DNA of 49,338 nt from a virus (taxonomy: Duplodnaviria; Heunggongvirae; Uroviricota; Caudoviricetes): the IMG/VR virus record IMGVR_UViG_2721755725_000012. One strand, written 5' to 3'. The position numbers are program-made. Positions 33,001-39,000 of this stretch are shown here, one piece after another; within the stretch, counting starts at the first letter, position 1; the number at the start of each line of letters is the position of its first letter.

Positions 33001-36000
33001 GATGGCTGGTGGGTGCCCCTTACACCCACCAGCCGCCCATTTACCACAAATAAAAAAGCCTTCAGGACTGAAGGCGTCTGTAACAACCAAACTGATAGTC
33101 TGCCAGACCCGCCATAACCAGCTGGGTCAGTATTAACTGGCAGCGTTCGCGTGAAAGGTAAGTATTCTGCGCAATCTCCCCGACTGTCGCCGGGTCGGTA
33201 ACGCTTAATTCATTAAACACCACTCTGGCGGTTTCTGTCATATCCTGCTGTTTCAGCATGTCTTTTTCCCTTTTCCGGTTAACGTGACACACCAATAACT
33301 CTTGTCGAAAAAGCCAGCAACCTGAAAGAACGGTATTAATAACCACCAGCGAATTTATTGCGCTGCTGTATATTACGGACACAAAAAAACCACCTTCCGG
33401 TGGCTTCCTTGTGCGAAAAAACTTGCATTTCGCCTCGCGATACAGCTTTGCGAAGCTTACAGGAATTCAAGCTGTTTCTGCGTAAAAAAGCAAGCTTTTT
33501 TTATCGAAATGAATCGTGCATAGGTACATAAAGCATGTGTTCAGCCACGGCTAACCAACCTGCAATACGTTTCTCACATGTGCTGAAACACCATTCCGGG
33601 TGAGTACGATTTAAACATTCTGCCATTTTTCTCTTACTCATTCCCCGTCCTTCGTACCTTTGCCGGAGAATATTGATTAGCCCGGGATATTCCCCAAGCA
33701 CCTCACTGATAACGCGATCAATAATCAACGCCTCTGTGTCTGTACAATGTGACAACCAGCTCTTCTGCTTCCCTCTGGTCATATCCCGAAAAAATGCCTC
33801 AAGTTCCGGTTTTTCCAGCCCGGATTTCTTCATGCTGCGTAAAACCTCATTAACTGCTGTTTTCGTCAGCTTTTTCGAAACCAGTAACCGGTTAAACATA
33901 TTTCCGGATTTACCCCCACCGATATACGACCACCGCCCCCACATCCGTAATTTCCCCTGGATCCAGACTGCTTCCAGCGTGTTCAGGCGTAAATGTTCGC
34001 CGCTTTTGCCTGTAATTTCCGGATATATCATATTTACGCTCACTCACTCTCAATTTTGTAAATCTTCACGCCCAGCCGTCCCCCAGGAACGCGCTGACCG
34101 CGCACAATATTGATTTCATCAAACTGCTCGTCGTCTATGAGAAGTCCGGCATGCGTCAGCGCATCCAGTGGTGCTTTCAGGATATTGTCCAGGTCACGAC
34201 GACGTTTATCCGGTGGCTCTGCAATAATCTTTATCGCCAGCCTTCCGGACAGGTTTAATTTCAGCCGCTGCTGGCGAACAATAAGCGCCACATCACGGCG
34301 ATAACGCTCACCGGCTTTTGATACAAAATATGTGCTGCCACGACGTCGCCAGTAAGTGTTCACCGTTGGCGGGTAAGGCAAAACAAATTCTATGCGTTCA
34401 GTCATTCATGCTTTCCACTTCAGGACACCCGAATTTCTCGCGTGCATTAAAAAACGAATCAGCAACAACAGCTGGCTGCCGTGTTTTTCTTCAAAATCTT
34501 TTACCCCGGCGTGTAGTTCGCTATGGCATTTACGGCACAGCGGAATAACAAACAAATCATCAGCCTTTGTTCCCATCCCTCCCAGTCCATGACCAATGAT
34601 GTGATGCGGATCATCTGCCTGATTACCACACGTCATGCATTTCTGCGTTTTTACCCAACGCGTGTATACAGGCATCTCTTCCCGTCGTGGTTTCTGGCGC
34701 TGGAGATACTGAGCCGGTGACTCCGGATCAACGGCAATGCTTACCACCGTCTTTTCCTGTGGCGGGTTTTGCTGGTGGGCGTGAGGCAGTAGCGCAATAT
34801 TTTTTGTGCGCTGCTTCAGCATGCTGGTGGCGGTCTGCTCTCCCGGCACGATGTCGCTCTCGCGGTATACTGAGCGAATTTTTTCCGCGCGTAATCCCAG
34901 TGAACGACGTAACACCGTCTCCGGTAGTGCGTCCGCTACGTTATTTATGGTTGCCCACCAGGATAATTCAGCCAGCGATAATTCCCGCTCCTGCGTGCCA
35001 TTCATTGCGTGGCGGATGACATCAATCATCCATGCTGACAGGTTTTGGTGAGCAAGCTGCCCGAGTGATTCGGAAGTCTGGTTACGCAGCTGGTTGTCGC
35101 AGTGCCAGCACAACACCATCGCGCCGGTACCGTAACGATGTATGACGGTTTCACTGTGATGGTAGTCACCATGAGGCCACTGGCAGGATTTAATGTGGCG
35201 TAACAGCCAGTCAGACAATGCACCAGCACCACCAGCAGCACGAATCACCCGCTCATCGCTGAAAAATGGCAGTAATGATTTATCCTCCGCCAGCGGCTGG
35301 CGAACAGCAGGAACGACTCCGGACGGCAGACCGCGCATGCTTTTCGGTTCCGGCTCCACCAGAACTCGAGGGTTATGAAATACCTGCATGGATTCACGGC
35401 CCGGTTTTAGCACCACCAGCCCAAGTTCCGGTACCGGAACAGGTCGAAGTAATACCCGCACGTTACCTCCAGATGCGTTGCTGGAATGTGCGGGACGGAC
35501 GCGGTGGGCGTTCGGAATAAGGGAGCCTGACATAGATTATCCAGTGACGATAATCGAGGCTGAGGGCTTTCTTAATCTCGTATCCGCGTCTGCGGTAGTT
35601 ATGAATTAGCCATTCGGCCTGTTCTTCAGTACATGGTGGGTGTTGGTACCAGTCGGTTTTAAATGCGTGTGAACGCCGCCCATGCCGGATGGCAAGGTCG
35701 GTATCAGAATTGTGAAATTTGGTTTTGTGCACCATCTGTTTTCTCTGCTGGCGCAGCAGGTGTCAGGTGTTCAGGCTGACGTGCGAATTGTAAACCAGAA
35801 TGCCAGGAAAAAACAAAACCCGCCGAAGCGGGTTAAGTGCGGGTGCGTTGAGGATGCCTGACTCATCAGAGGTGGCGAGGGATTTCTCCCTCGCCTGGTC
35901 TCTTACTCCTCAGGTTCGTAAGCTGTGAAGACAGCGACCTCCGTCTGGCCGGTTCGGATTCGTACCTCGCAGAGGTCTTTCCTCGTTACCAGTGCCGTCA

Positions 36001-39000
36001 CTATGACGGTTAAACAGATGACGATCTGAACCGCCCCGGAAATCCTGGAGACTAAACTCCCTGAGAAAGAGGTAAACAGGATGACTAAAAATACTCGTTT
36101 TTCCCCCGAAGTCCGTCAGCGGGCGATTCGTATGGTTCTGGAAAGTCAGGATGAATATGACTCACAGTGGGCGGCAATTTGTTCCATTGCCCCAAAGATT
36201 GGCTGTACGCCGGAGACTCTGCGTGTCTGGGTTCGCCAGCATGAGCGGGATACCGGGGGCGGTGATGGTGGGCTCACCAGCGCTGAACGTCAGCGTCTGA
36301 AAGAGCTGGAACGTGAAAATCGTGAACTGCGCCGCAGTAACGATATCCTTCGCCAGGCTTCCGCTTATTTTGCGAAGGCGGAGTTCGACCGCCTCTGGAA
36401 AAAATGATGCCACTGCTGGATAAGCTGCGTGAGCAGTACGGGGTCGGACCGGTATGCAGCGAACTGCATATTGCCCCGTCAACGTATTACCATTGTCAGC
36501 AACAGCGACATCATCCGGATAAACGCAGTGCCCGTGCGCAGCACGACGACTGGCTGAAGAGAGAGATACAGCGCGTATACGATGAAAATCATCAGGTGTA
36601 CGGTGTGCGTAAAGTCTGGCGTCAGTTGTTACGGGAAGGAATCAGGGTGGCCAGATGTACAGTGGCACGTCTCATGGCGGTTATGGGACTTGCCGGTGTT
36701 CTCCGGGGTAAAAAGGTCCGTACGACCATCAGCCGGAAAGCCGTTGCCGCAGGCGACCGCGTAAACCGTCAGTTCGTGGCAGAACGACCTGACCAGCTGT
36801 GGGTGGCTGATTTTACTTACGTCAGCACATGGCAGGGCTTCGTCTATGTGGCGTTTATCATTGATGTGTTTGCCGGATACATCGTGGGGTGGCGGGTCTC
36901 ATCGTCTATGGAAACGACATTCGTGCTGGATGCGCTGGAGCAGGCGTTGTGGGCCCGTCGTCCGTCTGGCACCATCCATCACAGCGATAAAGGCTCTCAG
37001 TATGTGTCACTGGCCTATACGGAGCGACTAAAAGAAGCCGGATTACTGGCATCAACAGGGAGTACAGGCGACTCGTATGACAACGCGATGGCTGAGAGCA
37101 TCAATGGTCTTTACAAAGCGGAGGTAATACACCGTAAGAGCTGGAAAAACCGTGCAGAAGTGGAACTGGCCACACTAACGTGGGTGGACTGGTATAACAA
37201 TCGACGATTGCTGGGAAGGCTGGGCCATACTCCTCCGGCAGAAGCAGAAAAAGCTTATTATGCTTCCATCGGAAACGATGATCTGGCAGCCTGAGTTCAC
37301 AGATAAAACACTCTCCAGGAAACCCGGGGCGGTTCAATCAGGGCGATTAACATCGCCTTTTGCTGCTTCATAGCCTGCTTCTCCTTGCCTTTCGGCACGT
37401 AAGAGGCTAACCTACATGTGCAAAGCATGAAATTGGCCTCAGATTAATGTTAAGCGTCTTGCCGGACGCGTAATGTTAACTGGGGCTTTTCTCTATCTGC
37501 CTTTTGGTGTTCATGCCTGAGGCAGATAGCCTCAAGCACCCGCAGCAATTCTAACTATCCAATAGATCAATGCCAACTTCTTTTCCTGCAACATCTCTCA
37601 TCAGAAGTGACCCAAATTCATCCAATCAGCACAAAAGAAACATTTAAAGCGTGAATGCTACCGAACGTTCATTTCAATTACATCGTTTTGATTTTTAACA
37701 GTTTTCACCTCAACAAATCAAATGGCATTAGCATTCATCATGGAAGAAAGACTGATAAAAATGATCATTTTCAATGACTTATGATCACACCGGGTATTGC
37801 CAAGTCATTCCTTTTACGCCAGGATACCCACAAGTGAGTAGTCGAGGAGAGTTTGCCAATTTTTGCGATATAAATTTCAATGTCCGAAGAACCATTAATT
37901 GTTAATTGATTCTGTATAAGGTATTAACATGACAATTTCATATATTCCTATTCTGAAAGCGAAACGTTCTGAGTTATCAGCTTTATCGCAGCTATCCATT
38001 GAAAAGAAATCAAAAATTTTGCCATTACTCGAAATTGAACCAGTGCCAATTGACCCTGATTCAGGTATTGCCTTAAAGAGTTATAACGAGACTCTTATAG
38101 AGTTCGGAAAGAAAGTCTCAAAATCTTGCTCAGATATGCAAGGTGTTTATATTGATGGATTATTAATTGAAGAGCATTTTATTTCTCCTGAAGATCATTA
38201 CCCTATAATAAATGCGGTTAATCAAGTTAGAGATATGGAGATAAGAGTTATTCCTGTCAGTTCACCAACTCGCCCATCTAACTATAAAAGAGCGATTGAT
38301 GAATTAATGCAGAATGAAATATGCTTGAGATTAACCACGTTAGATCTGGTTAACCCACAATTAATAACGCATTACATTAATCATCTGGGAATTCCTTTAT
38401 CAAATATTGATATAATTATTGACTTAAGAGATGAGTTAACCGAGGATAAAATTAATTCCGGCGAACTATATACTTTGGCAATGGGATTGATAAACAATCT
38501 GGCGCACCTCAATGAATACAGAAAAGTGATTCTTTCTGGGGGTTCATTTCCTACAGATCTCAGTGATATTTCTGTTGGTCTATATTCTCAACCTCGAATC
38601 GAGTGGATTTTATGGCAGAGTTTAATGAATAGAAAAGAACTTGCCAGAAATGTGATTTATAGTGATTATGGAGTACAGCACCCCGACTTTAATAGGCTTT
38701 CGACGCGATTCCCTAGCGTATCTGCCAGCGTCAGATACTCTGGAGATAATGACTTTTGGGTATTTCGAGGAAGAGTAGCTAATCGCTTTGGTTATGAACA
38801 ATATGGTAAACATAGTGAGGATATTCTTGCTCATCGAGAATATTCAGGGCCTACATTCTGTGCGGGAGATAGAGACATAGAATATTATGCAAACGAGTAT
38901 CAAGCCTACAAAGCCAATCCCTCTGGTAACTATAAATTTGGTAGCCCAGAGGTATGGCGTAGGATTGGGCAAAACCATCACATAACTAAGGTTGTTGAGC

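Follow-up and report, generated by a model that had tools for sequence, protein, structure and literature searches.

According to Pedersen and Gerdes (1999), as cited in PMC2654758, the five hok loci of Escherichia coli K-12 have been inactivated by insertion sequence (IS) elements, point mutations or rearrangements, and IS150 repeatedly inserts at hok/sok loci in experimental evolution (PMC5419217). Among the mobile elements, those of the IS629 group are the predominant IS of enterohemorrhagic E. coli (EHEC) genomes (PMC3893438); IS629 leaves 3-4-bp duplications, has no sequence-specific target and has 62% of its copies located in prophages, which also hold most copies in O157:H7 (PMC3271280). 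With respect to the toxin itself, truncated Hok of plasmid R1 is non-toxic and full HokD is toxic on overexpression (bioRxiv 10.1101/2025.08.07.668861). Here we describe the hokD locus of a lambdoid prophage of E. coli O111, contained in a viral record of 49,338 nucleotides (IMG/VR IMGVR_UViG_2721755725_000012; this whole stretch is called the window hereafter), in which the hokD coding sequence is split by an IS3-family element. We are highly confident that this arrangement arose by simple transpositional insertion of an active-type element of the IS629 group (IS1203 isoform) into the prophage-borne hokD coding sequence, as a single ancestral event followed by vertical inheritance, and no sequence feature contradicts the simple-insertion reading. 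As such, hokD::IS1203 is an ordinary, already known kind of event, with both of its components annotated in public genomes, and it differs from the known IS-inactivated hok loci only in detail, in that an IS3-family element lies inside the coding sequence and all RNA elements are preserved.

The hok gene reads on the minus strand from an ATG at 37371-37369 to a stop codon at 35905-35903, which are exactly the outer coordinates given in an earlier note on this DNA, and the element between them measures 1310 bp as judged by reading of the sequence and scripted boundary extraction (Table 1). In keeping with the IS3 family, it has imperfect terminal inverted repeats with TG...CA termini and a short target duplication (3-4 bp in this family). 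The left and right repeats (IRL and IRR) both start with TGAACC and match at all of bases 1-13 and at 22 of the first 25, with a copy of ATC directly outside each of them; according to two papers, the terminal 13 bases, TGAACCGCCCCGG (36027-36039 and 37324-37336), are also the termini of Mycobacterium tuberculosis IS6110. The break point in hok falls after codon 11 and two bases of codon 12, so that the 5' part encodes MKQQKAMLIAL before the frame continues into the IS. In silico removal of the IS and one ATC yielded a 51-codon open reading frame (ORF), the 51-aa product of which, MKQQKAMLIALIVICLTVIVTALVTRKDLCEVRIRTGQTEVAVFTAYEPEE, is exactly K-12 HokD/RelF (UniRef HOKD_ECOLI) and matches Pfam HOK_GEF (PF01848) at 82.9 bits against a cut-off of 22, over profile positions 1-42 of 42. 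The characteristics of a Hok/Gef type I toxin (about 50 aa, a profile match and an N-terminal hydrophobic helix) are found only in this reconstructed ORF, the present one being split. In addition, at least 17 complete E. coli genomes, among them O26:H11, O111:H8 and other serotypes, have an uninterrupted hokD locus that is 100% identical over the full length to the reconstructed 688-bp empty site with its single ATC. Because these natural empty sites carry a single ATC at 100% identity, the duplication is real and not a 1-in-64 coincidence. The earlier note had proposed a 1310-bp IS3-family element with imperfect terminal inverted repeats, ATC direct repeats on both sides, a hok/gef-type ORF split after codon 11 and an uninterrupted 51-codon Hok-like ORF upon removal of the insert; all of this was borne out, with the split lying two bases beyond codon 11.

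The interior of the element likewise has the organization of the family, with two consecutive ORFs, an HTH-containing orfA and an orfB with the rve DDE core, and a programmed -1 frameshift. The orfA-orfB fusion occurs via this frameshift at an A6 run within GGAAAAAATGA, and PGAP joins the two ORFs with a 'programmed frameshift' note; the transposase scores 316 bits with NCBIfam transpos_IS3 (cut-off 160). Given the domains of orfA and orfB, the transpos_IS3 score, the ALIL pseudoknot and the A6 run, the element looks complete and transposition-competent. As to its identity, isoforms in the sense of ISfinder are elements whose nucleotide sequence is at least 95% identical to that of the reference. 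With its 1310 bp, the element has the length of IS629/IS1203, and identity was judged via PGAP labels, protein names and proxy copies: 1) the RefSeq/PGAP label for the element is 'IS3-like element IS1203 family transposase'; 2) the exact OrfB sequence carries IS1203v-type names, derived from an IS1203-type element found in an stx2 variant; 3) the element is 99.5-100% identical to plasmid copies labeled IS1203 by PGAP, with 100% identical copies occurring on E. coli and Salmonella plasmids, vs. 95.6% identity to a Shigella flexneri plasmid copy. IS1203 has been treated as an IS629 isoform that differs by about 4% from Shigella IS629 (Rump et al. 2011, PMC3271280). Judging from these labels and copies, 'IS629', the name used in the earlier note, appears right at the level of the group, and 'IS1203 isoform', in line with the PGAP label and the OrfB names, appears to be the more exact name. 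Structurally there is nothing unusual about the element: its length, its TG...CA termini, its imperfect inverted repeats of about 25 bp, the orfA/orfB -1 frameshift with ALIL, the rve DDE core, the 3-bp target duplication and the prophage location, which it has in common with most O157 IS629 copies, are those of IS629/IS1203 of EHEC and Shigella, and it is as an apparent IS1203 isoform that it departs from Shigella-type IS629.

The regulatory RNA elements around the split ORF are all in place, as predicted from homology, Rfam matches and folding: a structured leader with the Sok target, an overlapping mok and an antisense Sok gene. For the leader, the match to Rfam RF01794 ('sok') scores 119.8 bits (cut-off 59) and extends over the full model length, in hok sense orientation. 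Because this model ends at the hok AUG, the match represents the hok leader in the sense orientation and marks the 5' end of the mRNA at 37541, the same position as the inferred hok transcription start site. The earlier note had suspected that hok regulatory RNA elements lie in this leader, as they do, and the inverted and direct repeats that it mentioned are real and correspond to stems in the hok mRNA leader and in the Sok hairpin; its description of 37372-37500 as AT-rich, however, was mistaken, since this segment has 48% GC and AT-rich DNA begins only at about 37580, as part of a neighboring low-GC gene pair. Regarding the sok-like antisense promoter that it had suggested looking for near 37372-37460, no plus-strand site exceeded the threshold in a consensus promoter scan, but homology to K-12 sokC places a candidate within that interval, 49 bp from the IS end. 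By-eye inspection of IRR for an outward -35/-10 pair that might give extra antisense transcription found none that was convincing. The predicted fold of Sok RNA leaves the 5' tail single-stranded, followed by a long hairpin and then a U-rich tail (-30.2 kcal/mol, z = -5.0). As for the 3' end of the module, the fbi element CCUCAACGCACCC pairs with the 5' end of the mRNA, GGGUGCUUGAGG (tac, 37541-37530; nt 1-12), and in the reconstructed 421-nt mRNA (minimum free energy -173 kcal/mol, z = -7.5) both the minimum free energy structure and the centroid close via tac-fbi. This pairing and the intrinsic terminator were found on the reconstructed mRNA, while in the interrupted allele tac and fbi stand 1313 nt further apart. 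We conclude from these predictions that the locus was a complete hok/mok/sok module before the insertion. In a comparison of paralogous hokD loci, the Sok hairpin is near-identical, and the complement of the Sok 5' tail and the surroundings of the mok start differ (alignment columns ~180-200, window ~37415-37435), which hints at diversified Sok specificity among these loci.

Table 1. Coordinates of the insertion, the hokD fragments and the associated RNA elements in the window
Feature	Position	Strand	Basis or remarks
IS629-group insertion sequence (IS1203 isoform), apparently complete	36027..37336	+	boundaries, inverted repeats, PGAP label, OrfB names
Left terminal inverted repeat (IRL)	36027..36051	+	TGAACCGCCCCGGAAATCCTGGAGA; 22/25 matches to IRR
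Right terminal inverted repeat (IRR)	37312..37336	-	TGAACCGCCCCGGGTTTCCTGGAGA, read inward
orfA, 108 aa, HTH_Tnp_1	36081..36407	+	Pfam HTH_Tnp_1, 47 bits
orfB, 296 aa, HTH_21 and rve DDE integrase core	36404..37294	+	Pfam rve 96.9 bits, HTH_21 66 bits
ALIL frameshift-stimulating pseudoknot, across the orfA/orfB overlap	36362..36478	+	RF01497, 121.5 bits, E 3e-32
Target-site duplication, copy 1, ATC (GAT on the hok strand)	36024..36026		scripted extraction
Target-site duplication, copy 2, ATC	37337..37339		scripted extraction
hokD 5' fragment, codons 1-11 and 2 nt	37337..37371	-	ORF scan, extraction
hokD 3' fragment: last base of codon 11 (duplication copy), codons 12-51, stop	35903..36026	-	extraction, alignment, protein identity
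46-aa ORF, RefSeq 'Hok/Gef family protein' WP_072058819.1, ATT start inside IRL	35903..36043	-	RefSeq/PGAP annotation
hok promoter-like site, TTGGCA-17-TAGAAT, 10/12 match	37548..37576	-	consensus scan; aligns with the K-12 hokC promoter region
hok mRNA leader (tac 5' stem-loop, Sok target, mok/hok initiation regions), intact	37366..37541	-	RF01794
mok 5' part, ATG 37428, GAGG Shine-Dalgarno sequence upstream, in frame with hok as K-12 mokC	37337..37428	-	alignment to annotated mokC
Predicted Sok antisense RNA, ~77 nt, intact	37420..37496	+	coordinates transferred from annotated K-12 sokC by alignment
Inferred Sok promoter, TTGCCT-17-TAACCT	37385..37413	+	position relative to the homology-derived start site
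fbi element	35841..35853	-	pairs with tac in the folded reconstructed mRNA
Intrinsic terminator of hok mRNA, 7-bp stem AACCCGC/GCGGGTT and T run	35808..35834	-	terminator scan (35834-35817); conserved in K-12 hokD

Based on these features, we propose that before the insertion a sigma-70 promoter would have driven an mRNA of about 420 nt, the 5' tac of which would have been locked by pairing with the 3' fbi, that the in-frame mok ORF would have been required for hok translation, and that a convergent Sok antisense RNA would have covered the mok initiation region. The IS3-family transposase would then have cut the ATC of codons 11-12 with a 3-bp stagger, and the triplet would have been duplicated upon repair, leaving the first 11-12 hok codons and the mok start parted from the remaining ORF, fbi and terminator by 1313 nt. 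In the present allele the hokD 5' fragment reads into the IS to give a 24-aa Hok' (MKQQKAMLIALIEPPRVSWRVFYL, stop at 37299-37297), mok, interrupted by the same insertion, is left as a 43-aa Mok', and the 3' fragment is severed from both its start codon and its Shine-Dalgarno sequence. Codon 46 of hok (TAC, 35918-35920, minus strand) lies inside a UUACGAA motif, which is kept in this 3' remnant. The two short fusions would be the remaining products and, since they would lack the entire periplasmic domain and the greater part of the transmembrane helix, we infer that the toxin is inactivated. The insertion has left the hok promoter, the leader, the Sok gene and the Sok promoter as they were, and an orphan antitoxin RNA is therefore probably still made. 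In place of the intact, translatable toxin ORF of a functional type I toxin-antitoxin system we found a 24-aa fusion and a 3' remnant lacking a start codon, and we would class the locus as a hokD pseudogene that retains an orphan sok.

Several parts of this interpretation call for caution. First, Hok' and Mok' would be harmless, judging from what these truncated products lack, and Sok is probably still transcribed, given its intact gene and promoter. Second, the ends of Sok and its promoter are placed by homology to K-12 sokC, and the -10 hexamer of that promoter (TAACCT) is weak. Third, the isoform assignment draws on PGAP labels, protein names and proxies. Fourth, the polarity of the polymorphism described below may be read in two ways, as the empty sites of the strains 8E and 99.1145 may represent either the ancestral state or the outcome of precise excision.

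The 3' remnant deserves separate consideration, for PGAP calls a coding sequence there, WP_072058819.1, in every insertion-bearing O111 genome compared. One could argue from this that the remnant is a functional shortened toxin gene of 46 aa (35903-36043), expressed by transcription reading out of the IS, the more so as its ORF preserves the C-terminal domain in full and the greater part of the hydrophobic helix. We find this highly improbable: translation would have to begin at ATT, a non-canonical start codon located inside IRL and lacking a Shine-Dalgarno sequence at the proper distance, the ORF is antisense to the transposase with no outward promoter-like site found in the promoter scan, the mok-coupled translation that hok needs has been severed, and the coding sequence call follows mechanically from protein-homology annotation. 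We would thus regard the 46-aa entry as an annotation artefact of the hokD 3' remnant, which should be a pseudogene. In this respect hokD::IS1203 exposes a systematic mis-annotation in RefSeq, with a 3' remnant called an intact Hok/Gef protein.

In 37 complete genomes the exact hok-IS junction was matched in one piece at 100%, and these genomes are without exception O111:H8/NM/H- or have no stated serotype. The genome harbors about 40 IS copies, a classic source of misassembly, which would make it conceivable that a repeated IS was misplaced into hok; we give this explanation practically no weight, because the junction is the same base for base in these 37 independently finished genomes from different laboratories and platforms, and because a perfect 3-bp duplication is present. 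In contrast to these genomes, hokD is intact in the O111:H8 strains 8E and 99.1145, which carry the same prophage with protein accessions that are identical. Since the junction is common to the 37 genomes and absent from two O111:H8 strains with the same prophage, the comparison indicates that the insertion is a clade or lineage marker, polymorphic within O111:H8, and is not private to one strain. We postulate that it would have occurred once, in the ancestor of the widespread O111 (H8/NM/H-) clade, and would have been inherited vertically thereafter. The view of the earlier note that the insertion is recent thus holds in part: it postdates the divergence of these O111 strains, but it predates the spread of the clade, and the intact 3-bp duplication is not a useful clock. 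Matches in several pieces had raised the idea that hok is a hot spot for this IS, but no hot spot specific to IS629 is supported, since these matches represent unrelated IS copies that lie upstream of other hokD loci, at distances of 0.2-1.2 kb, and not insertions at this site. Further IS1203/IS3-family elements that are not the same insertion occur about 0.8-1.2 kb upstream of other prophage hokD loci, in an alpha/beta hydrolase gene and in a DUF551 gene (O26:H11 11368, locus 4094-5307; O111:H8 8E, locus 2720-3933).

The empty sites of 8E and 99.1145 may also be looked at from the opposite direction. If the IS insertion were a reversible switch, in which the intact duplication would permit precise excision driven by the IS-excision enhancer (IEE) and thus restoration of hokD, these two strains would be revertants and not ancestors. 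IEE, which O111:H8 strains encode on SpLE1-like elements, stimulates simple excision of IS3-family elements, and excision of an IS from lacZ restores function in O121:H19 (PMC9397093); moreover, the empty-site prophage of 8E is only 2 single-nucleotide polymorphisms away from the insertion-bearing one over 12.7 kb of flanks. Against these observations, the finished assemblies show no excision footprint or mixed population, identical empty sites in O26:H11 and other serotypes fit ancestry equally well, and reactivation of the toxin would be without obvious benefit. We therefore consider a reversible switch unlikely.

A related possibility is that the locus has been kept because an orphan Sok is useful, acting in trans in anti-addiction or immunity against the hok mRNAs of incoming plasmids, phages or other genomic hok loci. 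The promoter, the leader and the predicted Sok gene all escape the IS, the end of which lies 49 bp away from the inferred Sok -35; the 11128 chromosome has four other places that match this leader; and the hairpin is near-identical in other hokD loci, including a plasmid copy. On the other hand, a random single hit in a 156-bp ORF would spare Sok anyway. The Sok 5' tail is the recognition element in the R1 hok/sok system, and the region complementary to it differs between the compared paralogous loci, which argues against broad cross-reaction. Retention for a useful Sok is accordingly quite unlikely in our estimation. Taken together, that the hokD::IS1203 allele is maintained as an 'antitoxin-only' locus or as an IEE-reversible one strikes us as improbable, although the consequences would differ: 1) in the former case, surviving Sok would keep incoming plasmids or superinfecting lambdoid phages from killing O111 cells by a hokD-type toxin; 2) in the latter, a subpopulation would regain the prophage toxin through precise excision. 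Were orphan Sok or IEE reversion functional, the locus would serve as a small model, found in nature, of anti-addiction or of phase-variable control of a toxin, but the sequence itself does not demand either. Under simple insertion with vertical inheritance, the reading that we favor, hokD::IS1203 is one more documented chromosomal or prophage hok locus disabled by an IS and has little significance beyond bookkeeping, except that its junction offers a clean clade marker for O111 Shiga toxin-producing E. coli (37 complete genomes with it, at least 2 O111:H8 strains with the same prophage without it).

Compared with hokD (relF) of the K-12 Qin prophage, the restored peptide is identical, and the coding region, fbi and terminator are nearly identical DNA. 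The neighborhoods are also alike, with a DUF968 (ydfU-like) gene downstream of hokD, Q-like genes further on and relBE in the same prophage; rusA was noted here. In K-12, however, the whole upstream leader (promoter, tac, mok start and Sok) has been lost, and hokD abuts relE, whereas here the leader is present and the ORF is broken. In the prophage studied here a relB/relE-like pair lies about 6 kb from hok (13388-13859 of the compared locus), with replication genes between. Because this pair is separated from hok while K-12 Qin relBE abuts a leaderless hokD, the comparison is consistent with the K-12 relBE-hokD arrangement having been created by deletion. The K-12 hokC/mokC/sokC (gef) locus is similar in having a homologous leader architecture, an in-frame mok, a matching Sok position and an IS that disables it, but there the element is IS186, positioned immediately beyond the hok stop codon, and fbi and the terminator are lost, in contrast to the IS in the coding sequence and the RNA elements kept here. 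In both K-12 hokC (NC_000913.3 16300-17500) and a plasmid hokD (pPSJ-29_1 2330-2830), the end of IS186/IS421 is found right after the GC-rich stem 3' of the stop, with fbi and the terminator replaced by the insertion, and these appear to be independent IS insertions at the same spot. With plasmid R1 hok/sok, compared with the help of the Rfam model, the locus shares the Hok/Gef peptide, mok coupling, the Sok 5' tail and hairpin, and the tac-fbi lock. It differs from that post-segregational killing system in being prophage-borne, in having mok in frame with hok, as opposed to another frame in R1, and in that the toxin is inactivated.

The prophage that carries the locus extends in the window from integrase and excisionase genes through tail fibers to an effector gene, with no stx, and its host is a Shiga-toxin-type E. 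coli O111; hok is flanked by a DUF968/RusA/Q-like block and a replication region. The window is 99.57% identical over 48 kb to O111:H- strain 11128, and the left 1349 nt differ. Positions 1-1349 match another 11128 prophage at 2.536 Mb (the nleC and tail-fiber side), and the arrangement is colinear with that of strain SD134209, which suggests recombination or inversion between lambdoid prophages at the left end of the window. At 18159-18850 there is a tandem repeat of 162 bp with 4.3 copies (96% match), and the matching position in 11128 is annotated with split, frameshifted 'phage portal protein' fragments. The low-GC (30-38%) gene pair mentioned above (37929-39026 on the plus strand and 38986-39564 on the minus strand) adjoins the hok promoter on its upstream side; in this pair a 'beta family protein' matches PADLOC PD-Lambda-2_C (E 1.4e-40) and an sce7726-family protein matches the PADLOC 'cll' model (E 2.4e-28), and the two genes may represent anti-phage defense cargo beside the toxin locus.

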